A DNA stretch of 64,000 nucleotides from Candidatus Campbellbacteria bacterium (GTDB lineage Bacteria; Patescibacteriota; Minisyncoccia; Phycocordibacterales; JAXHMZ01): the NCBI GenBank assembly GCA_034521025.1, contig JAXHMZ010000003.1:79726-143725 (forward strand), read 5' to 3'. This document shows, one piece after another, positions 5,995-57,405 of the stretch. Each line of letters begins with the position of its first letter. The first letter of the stretch is position 1. The notes beneath the pieces were generated by a model. The model made no database searches. It worked only from the letters and a program-made list of their open reading frames with translations, and was not told where the DNA came from. Both the position numbers and the translations under genes were made by a program.

Positions 5995-6019
5995 GTCTTT
6001 GTCCTTTTAGTTCTTAAGA

Positions 6020-7714: not shown

Positions 7715-7804
7715 TTGATAAACGACGGATTTGATCGGTAGGGAGATAGGTAAAATAAAATATTAGATGTCGTACAATATATCTTTTGCGACATCACATA
7801 ATAA

Positions 7805-7846
7805 AAATATACCTCGGCTAATTTATTCTACCGAGGTATTTTATCG
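7805..7846. terminator. bidirectional intrinsic terminator downstream of 7862..8386(-)
   Basis: ATACCTCGG-loop-CCGAGGTAT with T-rich flanks both sides. Confidence 0.6.
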
Positions 7847-7861
7847 CTTTTATTCAAGTGA

Positions 7862-9798: not shown

Positions 9799-9803
9799 TA
9801 TTA

Positions 9804-11144: not shown

Positions 11145-11157
11145 AAAAAATATTACT

Positions 11158-14473: not shown

Positions 14474-15513
14474 ATGTTTTTATAATATTCTTTAGTCGTC
14501 TGTAATAATTTTTCCACATCACTAAATCGACCTTCATACGTAGAACCGAGTACTACTATCACTACCGGCCTCATAAATCCAGCATCTACAGCCACAGCCA
14601 GGTTACCTCCTGCTTGTTTTGTGTATCCGGTCTTAGAGGCAAGCAATCCCGTAAGAGAGCTAACTGCATCATTAGTATTAGCGACCTCGAGGGTTCTTCC
14701 GCTCTGAGAAGAAACGGAGAGATCAGTATATCGGGTACTAAACATCGTATCCGATGATTCCAAAACCATATGTGAAAATAATTTAGATATATCTTTAGGA
14801 GAAGCCAAGGCGCCGGCTTTAGTTTCGTTATTGAGATCAAGGCCTGTAACATTGTAAAATTCGGCATTTTCCAAGCCAAGCTCTTCCGCTTTTTCGTTTA
14901 CTTTATCAATAAAAATATCTAACGACTCCTTTTCCAAATCCTCGCTAACTTTTACATATTCTCCGGCTGTTTTTGCTATAGCAAAGGCGGCATCATTTGA
15001 GGAACTAACAAGGGCTACATCAGAGATTTCTCTGAAGCTCCACTTTTCACCTAAGCGTAAGTTACTGTCACCTTCAACATCTAATGCGTCTCTGCCGATC
15101 ATCACTACATCATCCTCTGACAAAATGTCTTGGGCAGTGGCAATGGTCATTACTTTTGTGATAGAAGCAATAGGCATTGGAGTCTCTGGATTTTTTTCAA
15201 ACAATACTTCTTCATTATTAAGGTCGTAGACATATATACCTTCTGCCTCTAACTCCAAGTCAGAAAAAACCTCTTCCCTTTCTCGCTCTTCTCGATTTGC
15301 CAAGATCTGAGATTGCATCTTTTGTTCATTTTCTTCGACTAAGTCTTTGTCATTTTCTATAACCGCCGCCTTCTGCTTTTGCATATTATTAACAAAAACC
15401 GAAGAGACTAACACCACGAAAGCAACTACAGTTAGCGTCGCAAACACCGTCATCGTTCGATGGCGATATAATAATTTTTTATAATTATCGAGAAATTTTT
15501 TCATATTAAACAA
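14470..15513 (-). CDS. D-alanyl-D-alanine carboxypeptidase (low-MW PBP, S11-like)
   Basis: 347 aa; N-terminal TM, SITK (SxxK), SSN (SxN) motifs. Confidence 0.85.
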   Translation of the reverse strand: MFNMKKFLDNYKKLLYRHRTMTVFATLTVVAFVVLVSSVFVNNMQKQKAAVIENDKDLVEENEQKMQSQILANREEREREEVFSDLELEAEGIYVYDLNNEEVLFEKNPETPMPIASITKVMTIATAQDILSEDDVVMIGRDALDVEGDSNLRLGEKWSFREISDVALVSSSNDAAFAIAKTAGEYVKVSEDLEKESLDIFIDKVNEKAEELGLENAEFYNVTGLDLNNETKAGALASPKDISKLFSHMVLESSDTMFSTRYTDLSVSSQSGRTLEVANTNDAVSSLTGLLASKTGYTKQAGGNLAVAVDAGFMRPVVIVVLGSTYEGRFSDVEKLLQTTKEYYKNI

Positions 15514-19988: not shown

Positions 19989-20402
19989 TCACCTCTTGGC
20001 TCGGTCGGCTACTAGCTTTTCCCAAAGGTCCTCGATATCGACCTCTGGAAGCAAGCCACTCAAAGCGGAGAAACGCCTGCTGGCGCCTCGGGCCTTGGCT
20101 ATATCACGATGCACGCGATCATGGAAGCCTACGTCCGTCGACACGAACGAAAGTAGTACCCCATAAGCCGCAGTCCATCCATCGGATTCCTCGTCGTACG
20201 TATCGAGTGCCTTGAGCGCTTCATCGATACGGTCGGCGTCTTCCGGTGGGAAGATCTCACGAGCAAACCTGCTGATGTCGCCAGGACCGCCGGCAAAGAG
20301 TGCGGGCCGTTCATCAAAGATGCAACGGAGGAAGATCAGTAATTGAAGCTGGAAGAGCTCAAGGTCTGAGTCTAGAGTGAGCTCTGGTGTTTCGGACGAC
20401 AT
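19989..20402 (-). CDS. hypothetical acidic protein (GC-rich island)
   Basis: 137 aa; own promoter and strong AGGAGG SD; approx 55% GC vs about 40% background. Confidence 0.5.
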   Translation of the reverse strand: MSSETPELTLDSDLELFQLQLLIFLRCIFDERPALFAGGPGDISRFAREIFPPEDADRIDEALKALDTYDEESDGWTAAYGVLLSFVSTDVGFHDRVHRDIAKARGASRRFSALSGLLPEVDIEDLWEKLVADRAKR

Positions 20403-20575
20403 GTATTCCTCCTATTTGAATTGAGGCTTCGCTACTCAACACCTCTTCGCCCAATGCGAGTGTGCCGTAGCAGAAAACTCTTCAACAGATTCGAGAAACT
20501 TAGGGCAATTCCCTAAAGTGAAGGACTTTCTGCTACGGCAGACACAGCGTTTCGAAGTTCGATTGATCTAAGTGT

Positions 20576-20604
20576 ATTATGCTATTATTTATTATTTTTG
20601 TCAA
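20576..20604 (-). promoter_or_regulatory. sigma70-like promoter for 19989..20402
   Basis: minus strand TTGACA-17-CATAAT; about 170-nt structured leader follows. Confidence 0.45.
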
Positions 20605-20638
20605 TGCTGTCCTGCGAGCTAGTAAGTGAGGTTAGATG

Positions 20639-21097
20639 TCAATCGTTCAAGCCGATCTGGAGATCATAGAGCTCGCGGTAAGTGCCGTTCTCTTTTTCAA
20701 TAAGTTCACCGTGCGTACCCTGCTCGACGATCGTGCCGGCCTTGAGTACAAGAATCTGGTCTGAGCGACGCACGGTTGAGAGTCGATGTGCAACGATGAT
20801 CGTGGTACGCCCCTCCATAAGTTCCTCAAGTGTCTCGGTCAGATCATGCTCGGTCTTCGCATCAAGCGCGGATGTGGGCTCGTCAAGGATAAGTATCGCC
20901 GGATCTTGTAGATACGCGCGCGCGATCGCCACACGTTGTTTTTGGCCGACCGAGAGCTTCACCCCTCGCTCGCCGACCAGCGTGTTATATCCGTCAGGAA
21001 ATCGCTGTATAAACTCATCCCCGTGCGCATATTTCGCTGCTTGCTCTACCTCTTCGCGCGTCACGTCCGGAGAGCCATACGCGATATTGTAGTGCAC
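20639..21097 (-). CDS. ABC exporter, C-terminal part of NBD (fragment after frameshift)
   Basis: 152 aa; YNIAYG..., LSGGQKQR signature, Walker B ILILDEPTSALD, H-loop. Confidence 0.8.
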   Translation of the reverse strand: MHYNIAYGSPDVTREEVEQAAKYAHGDEFIQRFPDGYNTLVGERGVKLSVGQKQRVAIARAYLQDPAILILDEPTSALDAKTEHDLTETLEELMEGRTTIIVAHRLSTVRRSDQILVLKAGTIVEQGTHGELIEKENGTYRELYDLQIGLND

Positions 21098-22311
21098 TGT
21101 ACTGAGTTAAAGAGTGCGATCTCTTGTGATACCACTCCGATCTGGCGACGCACGTTTTCAAGATCGATAGATCTCGTGTCTATTCCGTCAATAGCAACAG
21201 AGCCGGAGGTTGGGAAATAGAATCCCGCCACCAGATCAATGATCGTACTCTTCCCCTCACCGGAGCGCCCCACAAGTGCCGTTCTCGTGCCAGCCGGTAT
21301 AGTAAACGAAACATCAGTCAGTACTTCATTCTCTGTGTCATACGCAAATGAAGCATGGTCGAATACGATCTCGCCTCGCAAGGTCGGCGTCCCCGCTCCC
21401 TCCGGATGATAGATCTCTTGTGGCTCTTCAAAGATCTTTTCAGCCTCCAGAAGATTTGTCACATAATTCTGAAGCCATTGCCACATATCGTTGAATTCTA
21501 TGAATGGGCCATAGAGGAGGCCTGCATACGCATTAAAAGCAACAAGTTCACCAACGGAAATGACTCCCTGCGTTACAAAAATAATACCTAGAACGTAGAT
21601 CGCTATTTGCGTAATCAACACCAGCACTCGCTGAAAGAAGCTCATTCGCTCCCAGATACCGCGTATATGAAGAAATGTTCCCAATAGAGGTCCAGTAAAA
21701 TTATGTGCGATGGTATTCCCTTCCCGGTTTTCGTATGCGGCAATTTTTACCTCTCGCACTTGTGATATGACATTATAAACAGTACCGTGAGCTTCACGCT
21801 GATATTGGTGATATGAGCGCTCCAGTGGGGCGAGCGGAGCAAGCGTCGATCGGGCAACGACCACGTACATTGCTACGGAAACCACAAGTATCAGAGCAAG
21901 CCATACATTAATAAAGAATGCGAACGAAAATGCCGCCACGAGAGTCAGAAGTTTCGGCGCGATCTGAAGAATGTCCTGCGTCACGCTTTGCATCGTAAAC
22001 GCACCCATATTCATATTCTCCATCACTGAACCGAACCGCTGCTCTTTGTGAAATGACAGCGGAAGACGCAACAAATGATTATACCCCCGCACGCGAAAAC
22101 TGATCGACATACGCTCAGCGAGCGAGAGCGACCTGATCGAGAGCGCCCAGTCAACCGCGTACGTGACGAGCTGTATGACACACCACAGCGCAAGGATCAC
22201 AAATACGAACATCACTTCACGGCGAAAGTCCGACGGTAGATCGGCGATCGTCGTCGATGATGCGACCGGTGGTGATTGAATAAGCGCGTCCCAAGCGCGA
22301 AGTACGCCCAA
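21061..22311 (-). CDS. ABC exporter, TMD plus Walker A part (fragment before frameshift), MsbA/multidrug-exporter type
   Basis: 416 aa; 6-TM exporter domain then GRSGEGKST Walker A; TTG start; overlaps downstream fragment in another frame. Confidence 0.8.
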   Translation of the reverse strand: MGVLRAWDALIQSPPVASSTTIADLPSDFRREVMFVFVILALWCVIQLVTYAVDWALSIRSLSLAERMSISFRVRGYNHLLRLPLSFHKEQRFGSVMENMNMGAFTMQSVTQDILQIAPKLLTLVAAFSFAFFINVWLALILVVSVAMYVVVARSTLAPLAPLERSYHQYQREAHGTVYNVISQVREVKIAAYENREGNTIAHNFTGPLLGTFLHIRGIWERMSFFQRVLVLITQIAIYVLGIIFVTQGVISVGELVAFNAYAGLLYGPFIEFNDMWQWLQNYVTNLLEAEKIFEEPQEIYHPEGAGTPTLRGEIVFDHASFAYDTENEVLTDVSFTIPAGTRTALVGRSGEGKSTIIDLVAGFYFPTSGSVAIDGIDTRSIDLENVRRQIGVVSQEIALFNSVQCTTISRMALRT

Positions 22312-22435
22312 GAATCGGCAGAACTCACCGCACAGGTGTGTCGCGCATATAACGACCGATCAGGCGAACCCCTTGAATAATGGTTCGTCGATCTGTGGCA
22401 TTGTGTTCATGTGAATCGGCCACGATCCTTTTGGT

Positions 22436-23149
22436 TTACTCAGTCACCCCTATCGCACGACGTACTTCCGTCATTTTCTGTTCTGCCTGCTCGCTCGCCT
22501 TTTTCGCCCCAAGAGTGAGAACGTCGCTCACGTATGCTCGGTCTTTCAGGAGTTCGTTATATCGTTCACGAAGAGGTGCAAAATATTCTAATAATTTCAG
22601 AGCTAGCATCTTTTTTGAATCTCCATAACCGATTGAACCCTCGCGGTACTTACTCTCCAGATCTTCGATCTCTTCTTTTGACGATACAAGTTTATGAAGA
22701 TAATAAACGGTATCGGAATCAGGATCTAAGGGCTCACCAAGTGGCGTCGAGTCGGTCTGAATCGACATCACCGCGTCGCGAAGCTCATCGTCAGAACCAA
22801 AAAGCGGTATAACATTGTCATAGCTCTTGCTCATTTTGCGTCCGTCAATACCCGGGATCGTCTCAACGTCAGAGAGTATATGCGGCTCTGGGAGTTTAAA
22901 CGTCTCGCCATATGCGCGGTTGAACGCGTCCGCAGTGTCCCTCGCGATCTCGAGATGCTGTTTTTGGTCTTTGCCGACCGGAACTATATCAGCATCGTAA
23001 ATCAGAATATCGGCTGCCATTAACATAGGATAGTTAAACGTCCCTGCGTTTATTTCCTCCCCTTTTTCTTGCGCGTCTTTGTATGCGTGTGCCCGTTTAA
23101 GGTAAGAGATAGATGTAAGGCATTCAAATATCCAAGCGAGCTCTGTCAC
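22436..23149 (-). CDS. trpS: tryptophanyl-tRNA synthetase, C-terminal 237 aa (fragment)
   Basis: ELAWIF..., GKDQKQHLE, KMSKS; class I TrpRS. Confidence 0.85.
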   Translation of the reverse strand: MTELAWIFECLTSISYLKRAHAYKDAQEKGEEINAGTFNYPMLMAADILIYDADIVPVGKDQKQHLEIARDTADAFNRAYGETFKLPEPHILSDVETIPGIDGRKMSKSYDNVIPLFGSDDELRDAVMSIQTDSTPLGEPLDPDSDTVYYLHKLVSSKEEIEDLESKYREGSIGYGDSKKMLALKLLEYFAPLRERYNELLKDRAYVSDVLTLGAKKASEQAEQKMTEVRRAIGVTE

Positions 23150-23168
23150 CTCAGGAACGTCAGATTGT

Positions 23169-23411
23169 TTAAAAAGGGTTACTCTGTCCTTGGATCGAGT
23201 CCAACTGCAAGATACGCCGCCGCCACGTCAAAAGAGCTCTCCTTGCGAGCTTATCGGAACCACGAACGGTGGTTAGTGCGTGAAGGTCGGCAATAAAGAC
23301 AAGTGCATCATACTTGTCCTGCAGTTCTACAAACTGACGCATAGCACCAAAGTAATTACCTATGTGCAAACGCCCGGTCGACTTTATTCCTGAAAGAAGT
23401 GTTTTGCTCAT
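23169..23411 (-). CDS. trpS: tryptophanyl-tRNA synthetase, N-terminal 80 aa (fragment)
   Basis: MSKTLLSGIKSTGRLHIGNYFGAMRQFVELQ (HIGN motif); reading frame lost after ...HALTTVRGSDKLAR. Confidence 0.8.
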   Translation of the reverse strand: MSKTLLSGIKSTGRLHIGNYFGAMRQFVELQDKYDALVFIADLHALTTVRGSDKLARRALLTWRRRILQLDSIQGQSNPF

Positions 23412-23463
23412 TAGCTACAATAGTATCAAATTTACCTGCCGGAGTGGAGACAAATAATGTTTT

Positions 23464-24441
23464 TTATTTTTGCTCTTCACTTTGTTTACCTTGCTCCTCC
23501 TCTAGATCATCGAGGATTTTTTGGATGTCACCAGCCATAATACCCTCTATATTAGACCAACTTTTCTTGATCCTATGGTCGGTTACTCTATCCTGTGGAA
23601 AGTTATACGTACGTATCTTCTCCGAGCGATCCGCTGTGCCGATTTGATTTGCTCGGCTGTCGGCATGTTTCTTTTCTTCTTCCTCGCGGCGCAACTCCTC
23701 AAGGCGCGCCGTAAGGATCGATATCGCTTTTTCTCGGTTTTTTAGCTGACTCCGTTCGGCACGTGAAGAGACGACAATACCTGTTGGTTTGTGTGTAAGG
23801 CGTACAGCGGTCTCTACCTTGTTTACATTCTGGCCACCTGGTCCACCGGCGCGCGAAAAAGCGACTTCGAGATCCGACTCATCAATCTCAACCTGTGCTC
23901 TTTTCCGAATCGGCAGTATAGCAACCGAGGCAGTAGAGGTGTGTATTCGTCCCTGCTTTTCCGTCGCGGGGACACGCTGGACGCGATGCACACCGGTCTC
24001 GAACCGAAGCTGCCGATAGACGTCTTTGCCATGGATCTCAAACGACGCTTCTTTATATCCGCCCATCTCTGCGCGTGAGTCGTCGACCAAATTTATCGTC
24101 CATCCTTGATTGTCCGCGTGGGTCAGATACATCTGCGCAAGTTCTTCCGCAAACAACGCAGCTTCTTCACCGCCAGCTCCAGCTCGCACCTCAAGAACGA
24201 TCTCGCTGGGAAATTCTTCATCCTGTTCCTCTTCTTTGAGTATATCGTCCATTCGAGATAGAAGGTCTTCTTTCTGTGTGGCAATAGTGGACAAATCATC
24301 TTTAGCAAGCTCTAGTAGATCAGGGTCACTCCCTGCGCTTTCTTTCGTCTCGCGCTCACTTGTTTCCAAACGTTCATATTCTTCAGCCAAATATTTCGTT
24401 TTCTCGCTTTCTTTGTATTTAGTTAGGTCAGTATTTTCCAT
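23464..24441 (-). CDS. prfA: peptide chain release factor 1
   Basis: 325 aa; PAT tripeptide (RVQRVPATE) and GGQ motif. Confidence 0.9.
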
Positions 24442-24851: not shown

Positions 24852-26186
24852 TTATAGTGATTCTAGGGTGTCGATCTGCGACTGTAAGCGCGAGGCAATA
24901 TTCATTACACTGTTGGCATAATTCACACCGCGAGTTTGCCAACCTCCTCCGGCGTAGTAGCGAGCCGCAGCTTCCCACTCGGCATCATATGTTCTTGCCG
25001 CAGCTCCCAGATCCTTGAGGAATAGCGACGAAGCCGTAAAGGCGTCACGAGGATTCCAAGGGTTAGAAGGAGAAACTCCTGTTACTGAAGATACACGGCT
25101 CTGGTACATCTCCCAAGTGGATGGGATAAATTGTGAAGGCCCCATGGCTCCTCCCCATCCAATGTTTCCTATAGGACAAGACAACGGCTGAGTGTTAGGG
25201 TCTAGGCCCAAACGATCCATAATACGCAGGTAAGGCGCATGATCTCTGTCCGGCTTCATAATTTCCTTCCAAGTTCTGTTTGGGGTTGAAGGCAAGTTAC
25301 AACGACCAACATTCTGCCCCAGGTTTGATTCTTGAGTTATTATCGCGAGTAGAAACGCAGGACGAACACCTGTCCCTTCCTCGGCTATACGAGCGTAATC
25401 TAACGCCTGTCCAAAGTTAATGTCGCCTGTATCTCTAAGTGAAAATAGAGCTGAACGTATTTCAGAAGCTCTCGCCTGACGCTCCGCAACTATCTCCTCA
25501 TAAGTTTGCTCTTTCTCCTTGCTTGCCGATAAAAGCTGCTCTTTTTGCTGTTGAGACACCTGGATCTTTTCTTTGCTCTTCTCTATTTGATAAGTAATAT
25601 TTTCCTGCTCATTCTTTACCATTTCCAACTTAGCCTTTTGTTCTGCAGCTGCCTCTTGATATTCAGCGATTCTTTCCAAGTCCTCCAATATACGCTGTTT
25701 AAGCGTTCTCAAGGAGTCCGAATCTTTAAAAAAGTCGGATAGATTTTCGTTAGCTAGAAAAACCTCGATCATAGAGCTATCGTCTACTTCCCTCATTTTT
25801 TGCAGCAACCTAGACAAAGACTCTTTTTCCCTTAAGGTCTTATCTTCTAGCTCAGATATAGTTTCCGCCTTTACTTGTATATCGTTAGATAATTGATTGA
25901 TCCGGAGCCTGCTAGCCTCTAACTGCAGTTGGGTTTCTCTAATTTGGGCATCAAGGACCGCAATTTCCTCTTGAATAGACGCAGATTGAGATCGTTGTTC
26001 CTGGAGCTCTTTCTTTTGCGAAGCTATTTCTTTGAGAACTTTTTCTAGTTCTGCCTGCAATTCACGCTCACGCTCGATCTTATCTGAATCAGTTTCTTGC
26101 GCTGAAACAGGCACCGCTGTAAACACCAGAGTTACTGTAATAGCTATTAATATGTATATGGGAACTTTCGCGAGCTTTAAACTCAT
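24852..26186 (-). CDS. secreted coiled-coil protein with C-terminal lytic transglycosylase (SLT/MltB-like) domain
   Basis: 444 aa; signal peptide, about 230 aa coiled coil, C-terminal TQESN...GAMGPSQFIPSTW motifs. Confidence 0.7.
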   Translation of the reverse strand: MSLKLAKVPIYILIAITVTLVFTAVPVSAQETDSDKIERERELQAELEKVLKEIASQKKELQEQRSQSASIQEEIAVLDAQIRETQLQLEASRLRINQLSNDIQVKAETISELEDKTLREKESLSRLLQKMREVDDSSMIEVFLANENLSDFFKDSDSLRTLKQRILEDLERIAEYQEAAAEQKAKLEMVKNEQENITYQIEKSKEKIQVSQQQKEQLLSASKEKEQTYEEIVAERQARASEIRSALFSLRDTGDINFGQALDYARIAEEGTGVRPAFLLAIITQESNLGQNVGRCNLPSTPNRTWKEIMKPDRDHAPYLRIMDRLGLDPNTQPLSCPIGNIGWGGAMGPSQFIPSTWEMYQSRVSSVTGVSPSNPWNPRDAFTASSLFLKDLGAAARTYDAEWEAAARYYAGGGWQTRGVNYANSVMNIASRLQSQIDTLESL

Positions 26187-42862: not shown

Positions 42863-42899
42863 ACAAGCAAAAACACAAAATCCCCCGGAAGGGGATTTT
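42863..42899 (-). terminator. intrinsic terminator downstream of LTD protein gene
   Basis: minus strand AAATCCCC-TTCCG-GGGGATTTTGTGTTTTTGCTTG. Confidence 0.6.
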
Positions 42900-42978
42900 G
42901 TGTTGACATTTGCAGGAGCTCGCCTGCACTCGGAGTTAATCCTAACAATATTGTTCTACTTTGTCAACTTTAGTATCT

Positions 42979-44169
42979 TCAAACGGCCAACTTTTCAATC
43001 ATTAGCTCGAGTTCTCCTAGTATCTCTTCGTACTTCCCCATCGGTTCTTTTTTATAATTCACAAACTCATCGACAACTTCACCATTGCCATCCAAAAGAA
43101 ACACCGGTTTTGTGCCAACTTTTCCCTCTAGACTTACCGACATAATTTCTTCTGGAAGAATATGAGTACCTTTAGCGAAAGTAATTGCCCTGTCTTCCTT
43201 TTCGATCCTCCAATCCGATACGTCCAATTCATACGGACTTTCGTTTCTTACTTCCACCCACTCTTCGGTAGCATCGTTTAAAGCTAAGCTATTAGTTTCT
43301 ACAACTTCTATTTTTACTCTATCGCGGTAAGTATTGTTATCATGCTCTACCAAAAGGATGACGCTGTAAAAACCGGGCCTGTCATACGAATGCCTAACTA
43401 CATCGCCTCTGTCACCTTTTCCGTCACCAAAAGCCCAAATTAGATCTCGGCCCCCGACCTTCTCACCTCCTTCGAATTTGGCTCTGCCGATAAAACGAAC
43501 ATCCTCGCCCACAAAAGCCCTTTTATTTTCTCCGGCGCTCAAATAAAGATCTTCGTCCTCAAATGGCCATTCACTTTCTAGGTTACTGAACGAGTCCTCG
43601 CTATCTGAATCTTTTGTATCTTCCGACGCGCCTTCTTCCTCATTTGGCGGCTCAAAAACAGTGGTTGTATTTTCTTCACCGGGAGTTGGCAGTCCTTCTA
43701 TCCAGTCCGCATTCTCTTGTTTTTGCAAGGAAGCTCCATTTCCACCGGCTCCCCACTCAGAGTCATACTGAACACTATCAATAATATTTCCGGAGGCATC
43801 TTTGAAGGCAATTAACTCCCCGGTGTTATTTAATGAAAAGACGCTGTCGAAAACAGCGCCTTCATATTGGGGGAAATCCTGGAGGAATTTATCAGGGTCA
43901 TCTGCTAATACCGCGTGAGAATTCGCGCTCAGATCAGTGCTGCCTAAAAAGTTCTCAATTCTGTGATTGGTGTCGTTCTCAAAGAAACCGAGCTCAGTTA
44001 TATTTACCGATTGAGCACTCCCGTTATATATTTCTACCCACTCAAAACCACTGTCTGTTCCTTTTCTGTCGTAAAAAATTTCCGTTATTTCAATTTGCGC
44101 GAAAGCAAAGCTTGGAAGCGCGTAGCTACTCAATAAAATAGCGATAAATATAAGTTGTTTTTTATTCAT
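42979..44169 (-). CDS. secreted lamin-tail-domain (LTD) protein
   Basis: 396 aa; signal peptide; IEITEIFYDRKGTDSGFEWVEIYNGS LTD signature, second LTD-like segment (EEWVEVRNES) near C-terminus. Confidence 0.7.
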   Translation of the reverse strand: MNKKQLIFIAILLSSYALPSFAFAQIEITEIFYDRKGTDSGFEWVEIYNGSAQSVNITELGFFENDTNHRIENFLGSTDLSANSHAVLADDPDKFLQDFPQYEGAVFDSVFSLNNTGELIAFKDASGNIIDSVQYDSEWGAGGNGASLQKQENADWIEGLPTPGEENTTTVFEPPNEEEGASEDTKDSDSEDSFSNLESEWPFEDEDLYLSAGENKRAFVGEDVRFIGRAKFEGGEKVGGRDLIWAFGDGKGDRGDVVRHSYDRPGFYSVILLVEHDNNTYRDRVKIEVVETNSLALNDATEEWVEVRNESPYELDVSDWRIEKEDRAITFAKGTHILPEEIMSVSLEGKVGTKPVFLLDGNGEVVDEFVNYKKEPMGKYEEILGELELMIEKLAV

Positions 44170-45922
44170 TGTTGTAGTCCTCGTCTACGCGTAGGATCTT
44201 TTTTAATTTATTCTTTGGGATTTCATTTGTTTTTTCTAAAGATTCAGAATTGTTATTAGTAAAGCTATCTCTATTATCTCGCAATGGTTTCTGTTCTGAT
44301 TTTTTCTCTTTGTCTTTAGTCTCTTTTGGTGGTCTGATCTTTTCTTTATTACCAACTTGATCGCTTTTCATCTTCTCATCGATCGCCGGAGAAGCTGGTT
44401 CGGGAGCGCCGGTCAGATTCTTTAAAGCTTCGCGTAAGCTGTTTCGGTGATTCTCATCGCCGACCTTTGGCTTGTCATTGTTTTTTGTCTCTTTAGGTGT
44501 TTCTTCTCGGGGCGCTTTCTCTTTTTGTGTTGTCTCTTTTTTGTAATTCGGCTTTTTGTCTTGCCTAGGGGCTTTTCCCTTGTCGATTCTCTCAGAATGA
44601 GAAGATTCTGTTTTTTCTTGACTCTTCTTAATTGTGGATTCAACGTCAGATCTCGGTGTTCCAAAGTTTTTGCGACTATGCGCTATAGCGACGTCACGAT
44701 ATGAAATACGAGGCTCCTCTATGGGTGGCATCGTAGTAGCAGAAAAAGGAGTTGAAGAAATACCATCTACCATCAACTTAAGATAGACCTGAGCAAAGCC
44801 AAGGTTGACCATATCCTCAGCGGTAAACTGCGGAGCAAACTCCTTTTCTAGAATTTCCGCGTCGTAAGCTCCAACCCTGAACGAGATCATAGTCCCAACG
44901 TTACCAAAAACGGCCGCGCGCACCTCCTCAGACATCTGTTCAATATACTGGTGAGCTATAGTTAAATTGAGTTTGTATTTGCGGGCCTCGGAAAGAATGT
45001 TAGCGAAACTTTCATTGGCAAAGGATTGAAATTCATCTACGTAAAGATAAAAATTGGGCAACGTACTCATTATCTCGGGTGAGCTGTCGGCACGCGACAT
45101 AGCAGCAAGGTATATTTTTGTTATCAGCATCGACCCTAACAGGTTGGCGTTTTGCTCTCCGACCAACCCCTTTGAAAGGTTGATAATTATGATCTTTCGT
45201 TTGTCCATTATGTCACGAATATCAAACGACGATTTTGGCTGTCCGATGATATTGCGTATCAGTGGATTGGAGGTAAATTGTCCTACCTTGTTTTGAATAG
45301 CAGGAGTAGCTTCTTGCGCGTAGCGATCCGTGTAACTGGCAAATTCTTCTTCCCAGAATGATTTAACAAGCGGATCCTGAACGTAATCAACTACCTTTTT
45401 GCGGAAATCTTTATCGGTATACATTCTATTAATATCGAGCATTGTCGTTCCGGGATACTCAAGAAGCGCCAAGATCGTATTTCCGAGTATGTATTCCATC
45501 CGAGAGCTCCACGCGTCAATCCAGATCTTTTTGAATGCGCTCATTAATCCGTCTAATACCAAGTGGCGTTTATCTTCACCTACATCCTCCATCACATTAA
45601 ATGAGATGGGATGATCCACGTCGAAAGGAGCGAAGTAAAGAACGTCATCTACCCGTTCCTCAGGTATATACTCTAATAATTTCTCCGCTGTTGAACCGTG
45701 AGGATCCAGAAAGGCAATCCCATTACCTCTTTGGATATCCTGGATAGCCATGTTTTCAAGCAGGGTGGATTTACCCATTCCAGTCTTACCGATCACGTAA
45801 ACATGTCGCGTGCGATCTTTTGCCTTAATACCGAACTCTACATCTTTATTCCGGTGATCCGTTCGGGCAAAGTAGGTTACTCTTTCGTTATCCATAATTA
45901 AAGATATTGTAACAGAAAACAA
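44162..45922 (-). CDS. TraG/TraD/VirD4-family (type IV coupling-protein-like) ATPase with K/E-rich C-terminal tail
   Basis: 586 aa; Walker A VIGKTGMGKST, Walker B YLYVDEFQSF, C-terminal RKYKLNLTIAHQ (TraG-D_C-like); no N-terminal TM. Confidence 0.6.
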   Translation of the reverse strand: MFSVTISLIMDNERVTYFARTDHRNKDVEFGIKAKDRTRHVYVIGKTGMGKSTLLENMAIQDIQRGNGIAFLDPHGSTAEKLLEYIPEERVDDVLYFAPFDVDHPISFNVMEDVGEDKRHLVLDGLMSAFKKIWIDAWSSRMEYILGNTILALLEYPGTTMLDINRMYTDKDFRKKVVDYVQDPLVKSFWEEEFASYTDRYAQEATPAIQNKVGQFTSNPLIRNIIGQPKSSFDIRDIMDKRKIIIINLSKGLVGEQNANLLGSMLITKIYLAAMSRADSSPEIMSTLPNFYLYVDEFQSFANESFANILSEARKYKLNLTIAHQYIEQMSEEVRAAVFGNVGTMISFRVGAYDAEILEKEFAPQFTAEDMVNLGFAQVYLKLMVDGISSTPFSATTMPPIEEPRISYRDVAIAHSRKNFGTPRSDVESTIKKSQEKTESSHSERIDKGKAPRQDKKPNYKKETTQKEKAPREETPKETKNNDKPKVGDENHRNSLREALKNLTGAPEPASPAIDEKMKSDQVGNKEKIRPPKETKDKEKKSEQKPLRDNRDSFTNNNSESLEKTNEIPKNKLKKILRVDEDYNNE

Positions 45923-45948
45923 AAATTCATAAATGTAAAATACGTTAT

Positions 45949-47307
45949 CTATTCGCTTTTTTGCTCAAGAGCCTCTAGCGTATAAACGTTTCCTGGGTCC
46001 CAAAGCATCCAAGAATCCAGTCCTGCCGCATATGTAGCCTCTATTTGCGCTCTTACATCCTCGGCATCATAGTCTCCTCCGTAATCAAAGTCCTGTAACC
46101 ACGGTCGAATTTTATCGGCTTCATAGGATTCTTTTGTATACAGGGTCTTTTTACATTCCGGCGGCAGTGGCTTCTCTTCAGTATCCGTACTACCTTCAGC
46201 TGACTCCGATTCTTCATTTTCCTCAACTTCGCACTTAATTACCTCTGAGTCCAAGGTTTTAATAATGCTGGAGTCAGCAACGGCTCTCTCCACCGCCGAG
46301 TCCATTACATACTTTATGAGCGGACCGGGTACCTCATTGGGGTTACTCCAACCATTGAATCCGGTCGGATAATGAGAGGGATAAACCATCGGAGATACGT
46401 AGTCAAAGTACGGAAGAGTTTTCTCCAGAACTTGACCAATTGACATATCATCAAAGTTGGTAGTTGTCATACCAAAAATATCAACCGAAGTGACAACGTT
46501 GGGAATTTCTTCTTCCAGAGTTTCGTCCAAGTACTTAAAAAATGTCTCCAAAGTATTGGCCTTGCTTGCAGTCCCTGTATGTGGGAATTGGATATCTTGC
46601 AAATTGCCATCAGTTGGATAACGGACATAATCAAAGTTAAGCTCATCAAAGCCGATATAATATGACTCCTTAGCTATTTCAACTGTGTGCTCCCAGGCCT
46701 CGCGAGCACCGACATCAATAAAAGCTAAACCTTTATCGTCTCTCCATACTGAACCGTCAGATGCCTTCTGAACCGCCCACTGAGGATTCTTCTCGACGTA
46801 ATAAGGATCTTGAAAAACCGTTATTCTACCAATGACATACACATCCTTTTCATGAAGTTTGGATATAAATCCTTCCATATCTTTTGCTCCACAGCGGCTG
46901 TTTTCCCAGAGCCCTAAAAGATCTTTGTTCTCAGGAACGAACGAGAGTGTTCCAGTGTAGTCCTTGATATCAATAACTATAGAATTTATCTCTGTAGTAT
47001 CAACGATCTCTATAAATCTTTCCCTGAATGATGGAGTACCTGCCGCGCAACTTGTCATATATACAGCCCTAACAGACTCCGGAGTTTCAATATGCCTTGT
47101 ATCAGACTCGTCTTTTTCTTCTTTATTATTCAACAGATCTCCCAATTTGTTAGCCACTCCCTCACCGGATCGATGTTCTATCTTGTAAGCAAAGAGTGAA
47201 GAATGATCAGCCAGTGCATACAAAAAAGCTCCCAAGCTGATCACTAAGACCATAACGGCAACTAGTAATTTTATCACTTTCCTTTTTTTTCTTCGTTTTC
47301 TGGCCAT
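45949..47307 (-). CDS. membrane-anchored putative glycoside-hydrolase-like TIM-barrel protein (DUF4015-like)
   Basis: 452 aa; N-terminal basic stretch plus TM; family assignment tentative. Confidence 0.45.
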   Translation of the reverse strand: MARKRRKKRKVIKLLVAVMVLVISLGAFLYALADHSSLFAYKIEHRSGEGVANKLGDLLNNKEEKDESDTRHIETPESVRAVYMTSCAAGTPSFRERFIEIVDTTEINSIVIDIKDYTGTLSFVPENKDLLGLWENSRCGAKDMEGFISKLHEKDVYVIGRITVFQDPYYVEKNPQWAVQKASDGSVWRDDKGLAFIDVGAREAWEHTVEIAKESYYIGFDELNFDYVRYPTDGNLQDIQFPHTGTASKANTLETFFKYLDETLEEEIPNVVTSVDIFGMTTTNFDDMSIGQVLEKTLPYFDYVSPMVYPSHYPTGFNGWSNPNEVPGPLIKYVMDSAVERAVADSSIIKTLDSEVIKCEVEENEESESAEGSTDTEEKPLPPECKKTLYTKESYEADKIRPWLQDFDYGGDYDAEDVRAQIEATYAAGLDSWMLWDPGNVYTLEALEQKSE

Positions 47308-47313
47308 ACAAAA

Positions 47314-47631
47314 TTAATCTCCGCCCTCCATTGCCATTTCATTTGAACTGCTTCCATCGCTAACGCTAATTTTTCTTTCTTCTTCCGCAGAGGGGGATTT
47401 TTTAGCCTGCTTTTCCGTCGCTTTTTCTCCCTGTCTTTTTTTGCGTTCAATTTTCGCAAGAGCATGTACATACCCGGAGTAAAGAGAATATACCGAAATA
47501 CCTAAAATAAAAGTGCCTAAAACAGCAATAAAAGCATCATTCCAAGAATTCGGAAATCCCAAAAACGGTAGTAAGGTTAAGAACAGCGACAGAACTGCAA
47601 TAGCGGCTAATGCGTAAAAAGAAACCAACAT
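47314..47631 (-). CDS. small membrane protein
   Basis: 105 aa; 2-3 TM helices, charged C-tail. Confidence 0.4.
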   Translation of the reverse strand: MLVSFYALAAIAVLSLFLTLLPFLGFPNSWNDAFIAVLGTFILGISVYSLYSGYVHALAKIERKKRQGEKATEKQAKKSPSAEEERKISVSDGSSSNEMAMEGGD

Positions 47632-47645: not shown

Positions 47646-48326
47646 CTATTTTCTACCGCCAATCATGAGGATAATTTCCCCTTTTATATTTTCTCTTTCA
47701 GAAAAAGTGAGCAAAACTTCTTCGGGGCTACCTCCTACGATTTCTTCAAAATACTTGGTTAATTCACGCAAAACGACAACCTTATATGTACTATCCAAAA
47801 TATCAGATAATTTTTTTAAGGTTTTGATAAGTCTATGCGGTGATTCGTATATTACTACGGTGCGCTTGGACTCACTGATCTCTTGAAATAAAGTTTCCCT
47901 CCCCTTTTTATGAGGCAAAAAGCCTAGAAAAAGAAATTCACTCACGGGTAGTCCGGCTACACTAAGAGCAGCTGTTAGCGAACTCGGTCCCGGGATCGGC
48001 TGTATTTTTACTTCCGGAAGTTGCTCGCGTACTTTTGCCACTAATTGCGCACCCGGATCAGACACTGCTGGTGTACCCGCGTCTGTCACCAAAGCAACGT
48101 TTCTACCATCTTTTAAAACCTCTAACACTCTATCGATCTTTTTGTTTTCCGTGCGAGCGTTTAAGCTTTCCGCTGAAGTCTCAATGTCAAAGTTAGCCGT
48201 AAGCTTTCGCGTAACGCGAGTATCTTCACAAAAGATCAGATCCACTTGCCTCAGAGTGGAAACGGCTCTGAATGTAATATCTTCTAAATTGCCTATCGGA
48301 GTTGCTACTATATAGAGATTTCCCAT
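47646..48326 (-). CDS. rsmI: 16S rRNA (cytidine1402-2-prime-O)-methyltransferase
   Basis: 226 aa; MGNLYIVATPIGNLEDIT tetrapyrrole-methylase fold. Confidence 0.9.
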   Translation of the reverse strand: MGNLYIVATPIGNLEDITFRAVSTLRQVDLIFCEDTRVTRKLTANFDIETSAESLNARTENKKIDRVLEVLKDGRNVALVTDAGTPAVSDPGAQLVAKVREQLPEVKIQPIPGPSSLTAALSVAGLPVSEFLFLGFLPHKKGRETLFQEISESKRTVVIYESPHRLIKTLKKLSDILDSTYKVVVLRELTKYFEEIVGGSPEEVLLTFSERENIKGEIILMIGGRK

Positions 48327-48330: not shown

Positions 48331-49617
48331 CTACAATAAGCTTTCTGCTACCTTGTATACATCGCCGGCGCCAATCGTCATAACAACGTCATTCTCTTTG
48401 GCGTCTTTGATTATATGATCCTTTGCCTCTTCAAAAGAATCAAGATACGTAACATTTTCGTGATGTTTTTCTATTTCTTTAACCAGATCTTTACTACTCA
48501 CGGATCCATCGTCTTTTTCACGAGCCTTATAAATAGGAAGTATCAAAACCTGGTCGGCATCTTCAAAAGCAAGAGAAAAATCTTTTAAAAACGACTTGGT
48601 GCGGCTAAAAAGGTGCGGTTGGAATACCGCTATTATATTTTTTCCGGCAAATTTTTCCTTAGCCGCGCTGAGTGTAGCTTTAATTTCAGTAGGATGGTGA
48701 GCATAGTCATCATATATTAAAACCCCATTATCGCTTTTGCCTTTTTCTTCAAATCGGCGCCAGGTTCCCGAGAAGTCTCTGAGAGCTTGCATAGATTCCT
48801 GTCTTTCAGCACCCAATTCGCGAACGATCGTTAATGCCACAGCCGCATTTTTGCGGTTATGCTCTCCCGGTAGCGAAATATTAATTTCATTCAGTACTTC
48901 TCTGTAATCAACAACACGCGCCTCCACTCCTTCTGTCGCTTTTGCGGCATTTTCATCTTCTGAATCAACGATTATTACACCATCCTTGCTGACCTTCTTT
49001 GCGAGTTCACTAAACGCCCTTATCACATCATTAACGTCTTTATAATAATCGAGATGGTCGGCTTCTATATTGGTAATAGCCAAAATATATGGCTGAAGAT
49101 GACTAAAAGATTCTCTGTATTCACAAGCTTCTACTAAAAACAGATCGCTATTGCCGGAAACATAATTTGATTTATGGCTTTTCAAAAGACTACCGACGAC
49201 AACCGTAGGCTCAAGTCCTCCGGCTATCATAGCTTCGGCGGTCATAGCTGTAGTAGTTGTTTTTCCGTGAGTCCCTGAGATAGCTATTGTCCTATGAGAA
49301 CGTGAAAGATAGCCAAGAATTTCGGGATAGCTAAATACTTTGATCCGCAACTCACGAGCTAGCTCTAATTCCGGATTGTCATCAGGCACGGCTATGGTGT
49401 AGACAACCATATCCGCGTCTTTTGGTACATTCTCTTTTTCTTGACTGTAAAAAATTTTCGCCCCGAGCAATTCTAGTTCTTCGGTTACTCTGTTTTTAGA
49501 CAAATCAGATCCGCTAACCACAGAACCACGCTCAAGAAACATTCTAGCTATTGCTGAAACTCCAATACCGCCGATGCCGATAAAATGTATTTTGTGCTTG
49601 AGTTCAACTTCGTTCAT
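48331..49617 (-). CDS. murC: UDP-N-acetylmuramate--L-alanine ligase
   Basis: 428 aa; IHFIGIGGIGVS N-terminal, Mur ligase central and C domains. Confidence 0.9.
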   Translation of the reverse strand: MNEVELKHKIHFIGIGGIGVSAIARMFLERGSVVSGSDLSKNRVTEELELLGAKIFYSQEKENVPKDADMVVYTIAVPDDNPELELARELRIKVFSYPEILGYLSRSHRTIAISGTHGKTTTTAMTAEAMIAGGLEPTVVVGSLLKSHKSNYVSGNSDLFLVEACEYRESFSHLQPYILAITNIEADHLDYYKDVNDVIRAFSELAKKVSKDGVIIVDSEDENAAKATEGVEARVVDYREVLNEINISLPGEHNRKNAAVALTIVRELGAERQESMQALRDFSGTWRRFEEKGKSDNGVLIYDDYAHHPTEIKATLSAAKEKFAGKNIIAVFQPHLFSRTKSFLKDFSLAFEDADQVLILPIYKAREKDDGSVSSKDLVKEIEKHHENVTYLDSFEEAKDHIIKDAKENDVVMTIGAGDVYKVAESLL

Positions 49618-50077
49618 ATTTTTTGTGAAATTCTACTATTTCTTCGAGCATTTTATTTCTATCAACCTTTACTTTATCGAGCTCTTCGATAGATACCCAT
49701 TTGATCTCTCTGACCTCCGTAGGGTCTATTATACATTGTTTAGATTCAGATACCGCATAGAAGTGGTGCACAGTAACATTTTTATGAGGCCTAGAATCTT
49801 TTGAAGTGGCAAAAAGCGAAACAGTATTGAGATTCAAACCAACCTCTTCTTTAACTTCCCTTCTTAAGCCTTCTTCCAACTCTTCGTTTTTTCCAACAAA
49901 TCCACCGGGAAAAGTCCAGACATCATTTCCGTAATTCTGCTTGATCAATAACAACTCATCTCGATAGAAAATGCATCCCGTAGCCGCCGACCTCTCTCGC
50001 CTGTCGAAAAAGAGCCAGATCAATAACAACCTATGCAATACACCAATAGGTACAACTCTTTTTAGAAATTTTTCCAA
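49604..50077 (-). CDS. NUDIX hydrolase
   Basis: 157 aa; Nudix box GGFVGKNEELEEGLRREVKEEVGL. Confidence 0.8.
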   Translation of the reverse strand: MEKFLKRVVPIGVLHRLLLIWLFFDRRERSAATGCIFYRDELLLIKQNYGNDVWTFPGGFVGKNEELEEGLRREVKEEVGLNLNTVSLFATSKDSRPHKNVTVHHFYAVSESKQCIIDPTEVREIKWVSIEELDKVKVDRNKMLEEIVEFHKKYERS

Positions 50078-50082: not shown

Positions 50083-51432
50083 TTATAGCTTATTGATAAT
50101 CTCCCTAAACTGCTCACCCCGATCAAATTCATTTTTAAACATTCCAAATGAGGCGAATCCCGGAGAAAGAACTACGGCTGTACCCGAGTCAGCCAAGGAA
50201 AGAGCGGCCTCTACGGCTTCTTTCATAGAAGAAACGGGTTGAACGTTTTCAAATTTGCTTGCCGCAAGATCTGCTTGTAAACGCTCCGTTCCCTTTCCCG
50301 ATAACAACACTATCTCTGAGGCGTTGTCTTTTATGCTCTCGGCAAATTCTTTTATATCAAGCCCCTTATCCGAACCGCCGGCTATTAATATGATCTCGTA
50401 TTCATCCTTAAGCGAATCAAGCGCCGCAATGGCCGCTTCAGGAGTAGTGGCGGTCGTATCGTTAAAAAACGTTATTTCTTCTTTTACTCTTATCTTTTCC
50501 AGTCGCCCGGAGACGCCAACAAATTCGACTATATGTCCCTTCGCGACCTTTTCATCAACTCCGAGAGCATACAGTGCTTCTAAGGCGAGTCTCGCGTTAA
50601 ATCGATTATGGTCTCCGGCAATTGATAGCTCGGGAACTTCTCTAAGGTCATCCTTCGAACAAACTCGAACGTTTTTGTGCGGCGCCGGCAAATTGTATTT
50701 TTTCATATACTCATAAGCGCTGCTCCCGATTATAAGAATATCGTCTGTTTTTTGGTTTGCGTATATGGCTGACTTATCAAAAAAATATGCTTCCATATCG
50801 TTCTTGTAGTAATCCATATGGTCCGGCATAAAGGTAGTAAAAACAGAGATGTGGGGAGAAATGCCACGACTGCGAAATCCTTGCAATTGCCAACTGTCTA
50901 ATTCAAGTACGGCTATATCCCCTTCTTCCGCTTGGTTTAAGTAAGCAAGTGTTGAGACACCCTGTAAGTTTCCGCCGAGAAAGATATTCTTTGAAATGTG
51001 GCCTGCGCTCTTTTCTGATTCAAGTGCTCTAAATATCATTTGCGCCACTGTCGTTTTCCCTCTGGTTCCGGTAACACCTACCACTTTTGCTCCTGAAAGA
51101 TCAGCAAAAAGCGCAGTGGACATCTCAACTGGGATATCGTTTTTTCTCGCCTCCTCTATATACGGAGAATCAAGAGGCACCCCGGCCCCCTTGATAATAA
51201 GATCTTTGCTTTGAAAATCCTCAAACCTATGACCACTTAATACAAACTTTATATTATTAAAACCCTGAAGACGCTTTAAGGACGGCGCCAATTCTTCTTC
51301 AGTTTTAATATCCGTAACAGTCAGATCGGCTCCCTTTTGAGCCAAAAATTCAACATCTCCAACCCCACGCCCAAGCAAACCCAGCCCCATCACTGTTATT
51401 TTCTTGTCTTTAAAGTAGTCTTTTTTATCCAT
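50083..51432 (-). CDS. murD: UDP-N-acetylmuramoylalanine--D-glutamate ligase
   Basis: 449 aa; KKITVMGLGLLGRG N-terminal, Mur ligase domains. Confidence 0.9.
   Translation of the reverse strand: MDKKDYFKDKKITVMGLGLLGRGVGDVEFLAQKGADLTVTDIKTEEELAPSLKRLQGFNNIKFVLSGHRFEDFQSKDLIIKGAGVPLDSPYIEEARKNDIPVEMSTALFADLSGAKVVGVTGTRGKTTVAQMIFRALESEKSAGHISKNIFLGGNLQGVSTLAYLNQAEEGDIAVLELDSWQLQGFRSRGISPHISVFTTFMPDHMDYYKNDMEAYFFDKSAIYANQKTDDILIIGSSAYEYMKKYNLPAPHKNVRVCSKDDLREVPELSIAGDHNRFNARLALEALYALGVDEKVAKGHIVEFVGVSGRLEKIRVKEEITFFNDTTATTPEAAIAALDSLKDEYEIILIAGGSDKGLDIKEFAESIKDNASEIVLLSGKGTERLQADLAASKFENVQPVSSMKEAVEAALSLADSGTAVVLSPGFASFGMFKNEFDRGEQFREIINKL
51383..51425. repeat. 43-nt direct repeat copy 1 (murD start codon region)
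   Basis: near-identical to 51572-51614. Confidence 0.85.
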
Positions 51433-51571
51433 GGTATTAATTGTAAGAGATTATTCGCAAGCTGGGTTTAAGAAAGGGGTCGGGAAAACATTTGTTTTCC
51501 CGCGTCGGAGAGCAGTGTAGCAAAGCGAAACGTTGAGAACCGAGGGTTCTCAAGGAGCCAAGCGACGCCAA

Positions 51572-51702: not shown

Positions 51703-51738
51703 TAAAAGCCGAGACATATAGAACGTCTCGGCTTTTGA
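51703..51738. terminator. bidirectional intrinsic terminator downstream of the two-gene cassette
   Basis: AAAAGCCGAGAC-9nt-GTCTCGGCTTTT. Confidence 0.65.
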
Positions 51739-54795: not shown

Positions 54796-55190
54796 GGAGG
54801 AATCTCCGCTCTATCTAATAGGCTTCTTTTCAATGTGCGCGAGTCCTCGGCTCAAAGCTTCCGGGCTCGTCATTATCAGGTAAACGCGCCCTTAGAAGCA
54901 TTTACCGCTCTATTTGAATTTGAGTTTTTTAAAGGGTGCGCGATCCAAGACTCGAACTTGGGACCTCGTCATTATCAGGTGATCGCGACCTTAGGAGCAA
55001 TCACCGCTCTATCCAATAGGCTTCTTTTCAATGTGCGCGATCCAAGACTCGAACTTGGGACCTCGTCATTATCAGTGACGCGCTCTAACCATCTGAGCTA
55101 ATCGCGCACATTGAAAAGAAACAATACATCTGAGCTAATCGCGCACTCTTTAAAAAACTTTCCTGCGACTGAGTAAATCGCGCGCAAAAA
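54796..55190. repeat. array of tRNA-Ile-derived partial copies and about 48-nt direct repeats
   Basis: 3-prime half of tRNA-Ile (anticodon loop to acceptor end) repeated at 54937-54978 and in degenerate form at 54866-54896; aggag(g/c)aatc(t/a)ccgctctatc(t/c)aataggcttcttttcaatgtgcgcga at 54796-54843 and 54992-55039; tRNA 5-prime fragments ctgagctaatcgcgcac at 55092-55108 and 55131-55147. Confidence 0.8.
55034..55107 (-). tRNA. tRNA-Ile (anticodon GAU), CCA not encoded
   Basis: manual fold: acceptor GCGCGAT/ATCGCGC, D arm GCTC-AGATGGTTA-GAGC, anticodon arm CGTCA-CTGATAA-TGACG, T arm CCAAG-TTCGAGT-CTTGG, discriminator A. Confidence 0.85.
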
Positions 55191-55722: not shown

Positions 55723-55917
55723 TACTTAGTACTCATAACCTATAAAGCCGCCCCTTGCGAGGCGGCTTGTTATTTTCTGCACAATTTCTTTTGCTTCATT
55801 CATCTCGGTGTCGCTGTTTCCGAGAATAGCGGAAAGATTTTGGATTGTTCTTTCAAACACACGCGCGATAAACGCACGTATCGACTCGATAAATCTGAAA
55901 ATTCAGATAAATCAAAA

Positions 55918-57405
<1,488 letters not shown>

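Follow-up and report, generated by a model that had tools for sequence, protein, structure and literature searches.

What does an ATPase related to conjugative coupling proteins do at the end of a cell-wall operon? The question is raised by a 64,000-nucleotide stretch of a Candidatus Campbellbacteria genome (contig JAXHMZ010000003.1, positions 79,726 to 143,725; hereafter the window), in which four genes that follow rsmI encode a small membrane protein (the mini-protein), a DUF4015 protein, the ATPase and a secreted protein with lamin-tail domains (LTDs). Patescibacteria constitute a large share of bacterial diversity, and their nucleotides, lipids and amino acids have to come from hosts. The analysis indicates that the ATPase has the predicted fold of a type IV coupling protein (T4CP), that it has no N-terminal membrane domain, and that the order rsmI, mini-protein, DUF4015, ATPase is fixed. 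The identity of the parts is well supported; their function is not. The reading favored here, tentatively and with somewhat less than even confidence, is that the cluster forms a cell-envelope module, inherited vertically throughout Paceibacteria, with a domesticated orphan T4CP at its center that works by the mechanism proposed below.

Assignment of the ATPase required structure prediction, because sequence-only searches of the Protein Data Bank (PDB) gave P-loop-level matches to TrwB and nothing further. In an AlphaFold2 (AF2) model built from 45 family members, the core (residues 1-440) is confident and comprises a RecA-like nucleotide-binding domain with a helical domain inserted at residues ~107-230. 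The top Foldseek matches to this model in the PDB are DotL (6sz9), Cag-beta (8dol) and TrwB (1gl7), with E-values of ~3e-11 and TM scores of 0.5-0.6. HerA and VirB4 structures rank below these T4CPs, and FtsK is missing from the first 50 matches. Judged by its modeled fold, the ATPase is a VirD4/TrwB-type T4CP that lacks the usual transmembrane (TM) domain.

Profile searches add detail to this assignment. In Pfam, the ATPase clears the 20.5-bit cutoff of TrwB_AAD_bind (PF10412) with 29.6 bits and the 23.2-bit cutoff of DUF87 with 26.7 bits; TraG-D_C, at 20.8 bits, stays under its 22-bit cutoff. An earlier note on this DNA, made without database searches, had described a TraD/VirD4-like ATPase with a TraG-D_C-like C-terminal domain; the coupling-protein identity stands, and the domain assignment falls below threshold. 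Among NCBIfam models, the TraD/VirD4-like entries match only partially and below threshold, and CedD (the Ced DNA-translocating ATPase) matches residues 25-86 only, far under threshold. The phage family phrog_5156 is a strong match. Homologues at 28% identity are encoded on an Embleya plasmid within a PrgI-VirB4-T4CP-relaxase-NlpC/P60 conjugation cluster, and the ATPase family is therefore a descendant of genuine monoderm conjugative coupling proteins.

The open reading frame (ORF) of 586 codons proposed earlier is present and begins at a TTG. A start at ATG 45895, giving 577 amino acids, is likelier, because it agrees with where orthologues begin and with the length of P0001, an identical NCBI protein from a Candidatus Campbellbacteria metagenome-assembled genome (MAG). 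The Walker A (GKTGMGKST, 45764-45790) and Walker B (LYVDEFQ, 45026-45046) motifs are invariant across the 45 family sequences, as are many residues of the all-alpha domain (~45206-45577). No TM segment or N-terminal extension occurs in any of the 45. The core is followed by a disordered tail of 148 amino acids (44165-44605), rich in K, E, N and P and carrying a small net positive charge, which bears out the earlier description of a K/E-rich tail without a TM anchor. Tails in the family span 130-290 amino acids and are disordered and of mixed charge, with two short conserved helices. All 45 end in E[IV][PS]E[DE]xL[RK]K[IL]L, represented in the window by the conserved motif EIPKNKLKKIL at 44192-44224.

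A second architecture is found among relatives at 50-57% identity (P0421, P0427, P0430, P0444, P0453 and others). These long forms, of 750-1130 amino acids, contain one N-terminal TM helix and a conserved domain of ~370 amino acids without a Pfam match, followed by the T4CP module, an arrangement shared with phrog_5156. A split-off version of the ~370-residue domain was not found in the window or in 80 related loci, which raises the possibility that Patescibacteria have both an anchored and an unanchored T4CP paralogue.

The ATPase is both widespread and strongly conserved. More than 8,000 protein clusters (90% identity) match it at 58-78% identity, and those with a named source are all from Patescibacteria or from unclassified 'bacterium' MAGs. 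At the 50%-identity level, 22,729 cluster representatives match at E<=1e-3 and 6,268 at E<=1e-30, and relatives occur in at least 590 species-level genomes. These matches, together with a published survey (Quinonero-Coronel et al. 2025, PMC12102498), uphold the expectation that standalone T4CP-like ATPases recur in genomes of the candidate phyla radiation (CPR). In the 80 best loci, compared by tblastn with the window proteins and by de novo ORF clustering, median identity of the ATPase core is 75% (range 70-84%). The corresponding medians are 63% for SecA, 53% for RsmI, 46-47% for MurC/MurD, 46% for DUF4015 and 42% for MurB, with LTD at 30% and the mini-protein at 29%. From these sequence comparisons, purifying selection on the ATPase is evidently very strong.

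Gene order, too, is conserved across these loci. In 53 of the 63 loci with enough upstream sequence, the ATPase gene is preceded on its own strand by DUF4015, directly adjacent in 23 and within 3 kb in 25, and rsmI, murC and murD lie upstream of DUF4015 in many. The order is thus conserved in many genomes, and its recurrence in dozens of independent ones puts the arrangement far outside what chance would give. Unrelated genes separate DUF4015 from the ATPase in 25 of the 53 loci. Among the intervening genes are an N_methyl type IV pilin-like gene of 140-165 amino acids (L023, L040, L041, L043, L057, L058, L032), a fused LD-transpeptidase/DD-carboxypeptidase (L048, L065, L029) and, in one locus, a restriction-modification (R-M) methylase. 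Downstream of the ATPase, tandem family 4 glycosyltransferase (GT4) genes occur in 50 of 71 loci, and the LTD gene is often replaced by, or then followed by, glycosyltransferase genes. Other downstream contexts are a methyltransferase, or a Wzy_C/TPR membrane protein and then murB-secA. Overall, the neighborhood in relatives is an envelope super-operon containing alr, mur genes, the LD-transpeptidase/DD-carboxypeptidase, the GT4 cluster and the Wzy_C protein.

In the window, the operon is a run of ~8.5 kb of co-directional minus-strand genes that extends from murD to the LTD gene in the ORF listing and is closed by a terminator:

50083-51432, minus strand: murD (Pfam)
49604-50077, minus strand: NUDIX hydrolase (Pfam)
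48331-49617, minus strand: murC (Pfam)
47646-48326, minus strand: rsmI/TP_methylase (Pfam)
47314-47631, minus strand: mini-protein with two TM helices, 105 amino acids (ORF listing)
45949-47307, minus strand: DUF4015 protein, 452 amino acids (ORF listing, Pfam)
44162-45922, minus strand: ATPase, 586 amino acids from TTG (ORF listing, Pfam)
42979-44169, minus strand: LTD-PKD-LTD protein, 396 amino acids (ORF listing, Pfam)
42872-42904, minus strand: intrinsic terminator with a 15-bp stem, a 3-nt loop and a T-rich tail, closing the operon

The genes are tightly packed. Intergenic gaps are 4-14 nt from rsmI through the DUF4015 gene, the gap 5' of the ATPase gene measures 26 nt if translation begins at the TTG and 53 nt if it begins at the ATG, and the start codon of the LTD gene overlaps the stop region of the ATPase gene by 8 nt. 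Terminator-like sites lie upstream of murD at 51533-51553 and 51704-51736, and beyond the closing terminator are promoter-like sites and murB, then secA. GC content of the cluster equals that of its flanks, being uniform across the region. The NUDIX gene, inserted between murD and murC, shares 14 nt with murC, and the same insertion is found in L001, L018, L035, L064 and L080. The earlier claims of four packed, co-directional genes after rsmI and of a terminator at the end of the cluster (here, the stem and T run at 42904-42872) are both confirmed, with all four ORFs found where they had been placed on the minus strand. The same note regarded co-transcription with wall genes as unexplained; the arrangement is real, and it is less mysterious given the properties of the DUF4015 protein described next and the envelope super-operon of relatives.

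The DUF4015 protein is assigned by a Pfam match to PF13200 (E=2.7e-86, residues 81-342). Its AF2 model (confidence score, pLDDT, of 90) begins with a K/R stretch and an N-terminal TM helix (~47206-47274), followed by a TIM barrel placed outside the cytoplasm (~45973-47076), in agreement with the membrane-anchored TIM-barrel protein proposed earlier. The uncharacterised protein Cthe_0052 (PDB 4s1a), which provides the sole crystal structure of a DUF4015 protein, matches it with E=1.5e-46. Foldseek ranks 4s1a first, then Cwp19 (5oq3, E=7e-12) and the C-terminal domain of PgaB (4p7o/4f9j); lower-ranked neighbors are generic GH31, GH13 and GH18 barrels and the cortex-lytic SleL. Cwp19 of C. difficile is a peptidoglycan lytic transglycosylase (PMC6016235). 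By this structural likeness, the DUF4015 protein is a putative membrane-anchored glycan hydrolase that may cleave wall glycan, a role that fits the context of mur, alr and penicillin-binding-protein (PBP) genes. No functional study of DUF4015 was found in the literature, where one paper names DUF4015-YkyA fusions in Firmicutes only. Other candidate wall hydrolases are encoded in the window, namely a Peptidase_M23 protein (8509-9798, minus strand) and an SLT-domain transglycosylase-like protein (24852-26186, minus strand), so the DUF4015 protein is not the sole candidate of this genome.

The mini-protein is, as first described, a small membrane protein with two hydrophobic helices. It consists of TM1 (47560-47628), a PFLGFPNSW loop (47542-47568), TM2 (47467-47535) and a K/E-rich tail that is presumably cytoplasmic. 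The family shares this hairpin and a conserved PFLGFPxxW loop, with a variable charged tail. A profile search returned 270 matches, all of 60-143 amino acids and without a Pfam domain. Many tails contain a short 'F-V-E'-like motif (SFVQS, VFVES, AFVEH) ~30-40 residues past TM2, which may be a docking peptide; the window protein has no clear copy of it.

A hidden Markov model (HMM) of the family locates a mini-protein gene 5' of the ATPase in 55 of the 63 loci, within 150 nt of DUF4015 in 45. The mini-protein is kept in nine loci where ORF clustering gave no DUF4015, and in five of these (L014, L018, L028, L038, L062) it is the immediate neighbor of the ATPase. The HMM was built without any of the nine, and in one of them, L012, tblastn does detect a DUF4015. 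Searching outward from the mini-protein yielded two further lineages. In the first, comprising two near-identical contigs (L085/L086), the order is alr-murD-murC-mini-DUF4015-T4CP-LTD/PKD/LTD. In the second (L084), the order is rsmI-mini-DUF4015-CtpA, with no ATPase. The DUF4015-less loci and the ATPase-less lineage together link the mini-protein to both neighbors. By analogy with a plasmid system discussed below, the mini-protein is proposed as the membrane anchor of the ATPase; in the window, the DUF4015 gene sits between the two genes.

The LTD protein is the least constant member of the module, and its family occurs 3' of the ATPase in ~21-33 of 80 loci. The N-terminus, MNKKQLIFIAILLSSYALPSFAFA, forms a signal peptide (44098-44169), followed by LTD1 (43765-44106), a PKD domain (43324-43536) and a second, C-terminal LTD stretch. 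Pfam gives E=2.5e-20 for LTD (PF00932) over the two stretches and E=4e-9 for the PKD_4 domain between them, and the PKD domain matches those of collagenases in the PDB. The prediction of a secreted protein with two LTDs was therefore correct, and had not included the PKD domain. The same architecture downstream of the ATPase is found in L085/L086. No anchor motif was found in the protein.

How might these parts work together? In the proposed mechanism, the ATPase would form a hexamer and work as a motor at the cytoplasmic membrane, to which the neighboring mini-protein would recruit it in the way that TraI is thought to anchor TraJ of pIP501. The disordered tail and conserved C-terminal peptide of the ATPase would dock partner proteins. 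The motor would then pass a conserved macromolecular substrate, be it a protein or a nucleic acid, to a channel in the membrane; the best candidate is a chromosomal MPF-FATA-like type IV secretion system (T4SS) encoded elsewhere, near dnaA in Paceibacteria. The T4SS of Patescibacteria is reported as monoderm (MPF-FATA) in ancestry, and virB4 of Paceibacteria usually lies near dnaA/dnaN (PMC12102498). The outward-facing DUF4015 enzyme would cut wall glycan locally in a VirB1/TraG-like role, which would account for the placement of the module among mur genes, and the variable LTD-PKD-LTD protein would serve as a surface-binding or adhesin-like accessory.

Several observations weigh against this proposal. 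Neither VirB4, VirB6, a relaxase nor any other T4SS gene is found in the 64-kb window or within 7 kb of the ATPase in the 80 loci, so the T4SS link can only be inferred. In the one Patescibacteria species in which a T4CP homologue has been tested, S. epibionticum, the homologue is non-essential for epibiotic growth and the T4SS is essential (PMC12102498). An identity of 75% that includes the substrate-binding all-alpha domain is atypical of effector-recognising T4CPs. The LTD gene is present only in a minority of loci. The mini-protein stays with DUF4015 in the ATPase-less L084 and so may belong to DUF4015 rather than to the ATPase, and no Rosetta-stone fusion with either the ATPase or DUF4015 occurs among its 270 matches. 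Finally, the sampled genomes all come from one class, and the conserved order could reflect inheritance in compact genomes.

This last point leads to the main rival, which is doubtful but substantial: the four genes would be functionally independent, and neighbors solely through vertical inheritance of an ancestral, compact envelope/housekeeping operon in Paceibacteria. DUF4015 and the mini-protein would then perform ordinary wall remodelling, the LTD protein would be an ordinary surface protein, and the ATPase would have an unrelated cytoplasmic role. That all 80 loci are close relatives is consistent with independence, as are the occurrence of the mini-protein-DUF4015 pair without an ATPase in L084, the pilin-like, LD-transpeptidase and R-M methylase genes that intervene between DUF4015 and the ATPase, and the variable gene 3' of the ATPase (LTD, GT4, Wzy_C protein, others). 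Independence is harder to reconcile with the mini-protein remaining directly upstream of the ATPase after loss of DUF4015, with the 8-nt ATPase/LTD overlap and the tight adjacency in many genomes, and with an order that persists even though neighboring proteins are now only 30-50% identical. Another reading makes the cluster what is left of a prophage or of an integrated mobile or conjugative element; plasmids and some Bacillus phages carry T4CP homologues, and phrog_5156 matches strongly. Such an origin is scarcely credible and is refuted by the housekeeping surroundings, which are conserved: dozens of genomes have the locus at an identical chromosomal position, GC content is that of the flanks, and no integrase, relaxase or repeats are present. 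Among 2.9 million viral contigs, 4 match the ATPase, and in the best (L087, IMG/VR, 8982-14618) the ATPase gene belongs to the chromosomal flank of the host. Directly 3' of it are a serine recombinase, an N6/N4 DNA methylase and a ResIII helicase, which suggests that an integrated element inserted beside the 3' end of the ATPase gene.

Other rivals retain the motor and change its task. One, which we consider unlikely, is that the ATPase is an inward-pumping nucleic-acid translocase (Ced/ComB-like) that imports host or environmental DNA or RNA for nucleotide salvage, with the LTD protein capturing nucleic acid at the surface and DUF4015 opening the wall. T4CPs bind DNA non-specifically and are kin to DNA pumps (PMC7434980), a universal substrate would fit the extreme conservation of the ATPase, and its tail is slightly positive in net charge. 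Patescibacteria do not synthesize nucleotides, and one representative lives on RNA of its host, T4SS-like tubes having been seen where the two cells meet (bioRxiv 10.64898/2026.06.21.733656). The weak P-loop-region match to CedD points in the same direction, but it is confined to residues 25-86 and lies far under threshold. LTDs are found in extracellular nucleases such as ExeM; however, ExeM degrades extracellular DNA without its LTD, the role of which is unresolved there (PMC6085458), and most loci have no LTD gene. Moreover, the module contains neither a channel protein (ComEC, CedA, VirB6) nor a nuclease. No literature linking CPR LTD proteins to DNA uptake was found. The suggestion in the earlier note that LTD proteins and standalone ATPases have been tied to DNA uptake or host interaction thus found no support here, and the one T4CP homologue tested genetically in Patescibacteria, that of S. 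epibionticum, was dispensable for epibiotic growth (PMC12102498). The remaining rival is a soluble FtsK/SftA-like chromosome-segregation translocase acting at the septum and co-expressed with division and wall genes. The location in a mur (dcw-like) operon, the membership of the FtsK-HerA superfamily and the housekeeping-level conservation are in its favor. It is nonetheless very improbable and largely refuted: there is no match to FtsK_SpoIIIE (PF01580), to the alpha domain (PF17854) or to the gamma domain, T4CPs come first in Foldseek, and the all-alpha domain typical of T4CPs is present in the AF2 model. In addition, a related MAG (L042) encodes a full-length FtsK with four TM helices and alpha, motor and gamma domains (5585-7909, minus strand) ~2 kb downstream of its ATPase gene. 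The FtsK assignment was accordingly rejected, and no other housekeeping family fits the ATPase; an assignment of that kind is what the earlier note had named as counting against its reading.

Two further assignments were considered. HerA is probably not the right one, since HerA structures rank below T4CPs in the fold search and no NurA-like neighbor of the ATPase occurs in the loci examined; DUF87 is just over its cutoff, and the PADLOC HerA match is partial. Membership of a defence system was rejected since defence libraries gave only partial mad8 and HerA matches with no system context.

Returning to the envelope module, its broader interest lies in what the motor moves. The T4SS is essential in one genetically tractable species and thousands of orphan T4CP genes are on record (PMC12102498). 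In the Paceibacteria-type genomes sampled here, one such orphan without a membrane domain is more conserved than SecA and is locked into a cell-wall operon beside a mini-membrane protein and a Cwp19/PgaB-like enzyme, and it carries a conserved C-terminal putative docking peptide. These features provide concrete, testable partners and constructs. One possibility would be a motor for importing host nucleic acids, which fits the extreme conservation together with nucleotide auxotrophy. In its fullest form, which we rate as quite improbable, the T4CP ATPase would have been domesticated into a near-essential Paceibacteria envelope machine that is anchored by the mini-protein, paired with DUF4015 and powers the import of host RNA or DNA for nucleotide salvage, alone or via a reversed T4SS, with the LTD protein as capture element. 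If the motor is an importer or a core envelope machine, this would represent a new use of conjugation hardware.

Two features elsewhere in the window were recorded. A complete 16S rRNA gene (55916-57404, minus strand) is followed by a spacer of ~800 nt and tRNA-Ile(GAT) (55034-55107, minus strand). No 23S or 5S rRNA was detected in the 64-kb window, protein-coding ORFs follow the tRNA, and the rRNA genes appear unlinked. A patch at 20001-24000 has a GC content of 0.49-0.50 versus ~0.41 elsewhere in the window, and the ATPase domain of an ABC transporter ORF within it (21061-22311) matches only positions 1-75 of the 137 in the Pfam model. This could reflect a split or frameshift in the transporter gene, or acquisition of the segment.

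Among known systems, the closest record is the class of orphan T4CPs in Patescibacteria. Quinonero-Coronel et al. list 5,713 VirD4-type homologues across 2,918 Patescibacteria genomes (dataset, 3,035), of which only 148 lie near virB4; they detected no adhesins and few VirB1 homologues (PMC12102498). The ATPase of the window is almost certainly among the 5,713, being far from virB4 and without a relaxase. The gene class is thus already known as orphan T4CPs, and the authors suggested that such genes were possibly 'exapted for other functions'. The parts of that paper covered here describe neither the context of rsmI, mini-protein, DUF4015, ATPase and LTD or GT genes, nor the missing TM domain, the C-terminal motif, the 75% core identity or the split between short and long forms.

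The nearest likeness in layout is pIP501 of Enterococcus. T4CPs lacking the TM domain are a recognised subfamily whose prototype is TraJ of this plasmid, thought to be anchored by TraI, and the wall hydrolase TraG is encoded in the same operon as TraJ/TraI (PMC7434980, PMC13037476). In both systems, a VirD4-like ATPase without a TM domain is encoded shortly after a small membrane protein, and the operon also includes a surface protein and an enzyme that degrades the wall (putatively so in the window). The pIP501 system has a monoderm (MPF-FATA) ancestry, which is also reported for the T4SS of Patescibacteria. This likeness is one of gene layout. In contrast to pIP501, the operon of the window has no VirB4, VirB6, VirB8 or relaxase and is chromosomal, housekeeping and vertically inherited, and where pIP501 has an SLT+CHAP enzyme its putative hydrolase is a DUF4015 TIM barrel. 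The ATPase is also far more conserved than plasmid T4CPs.

Comparison with individual proteins shows a similar balance. The ATPase shares nucleotide-binding and all-alpha domains with Walker A and B motifs with TrwB (R388), Cag-beta and DotL, but at ~12-17% identity and without an N-terminal TM domain. Its disordered C-terminal extension resembles those of DotL and TraD, where they dock partners; T4CP C-terminal domains are Glu/Asp-enriched (PMC7434980), whereas this tail is lysine-rich and of mixed charge. With FtsK/SpoIIIE and HerA it has in common the P-loop superfamily and the logic of a hexameric ring motor, but it contains neither the alpha or gamma domains of FtsK nor the barrel or NurA partner of HerA. 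For DUF4015, the closest characterised folds are Cwp19 and the C-terminal domain of PgaB, which binds and cleaves poly-N-acetylglucosamine (PNAG); both are extracytoplasmic and act on envelope glycans, although identities are 9-13% and the Pfam families differ. To the orphan T4CPs on record, the present analysis adds a fixed module architecture, a candidate anchor, a Cwp19/PgaB-like DUF4015 partner, a ranking of conservation and a conserved C-terminal motif.

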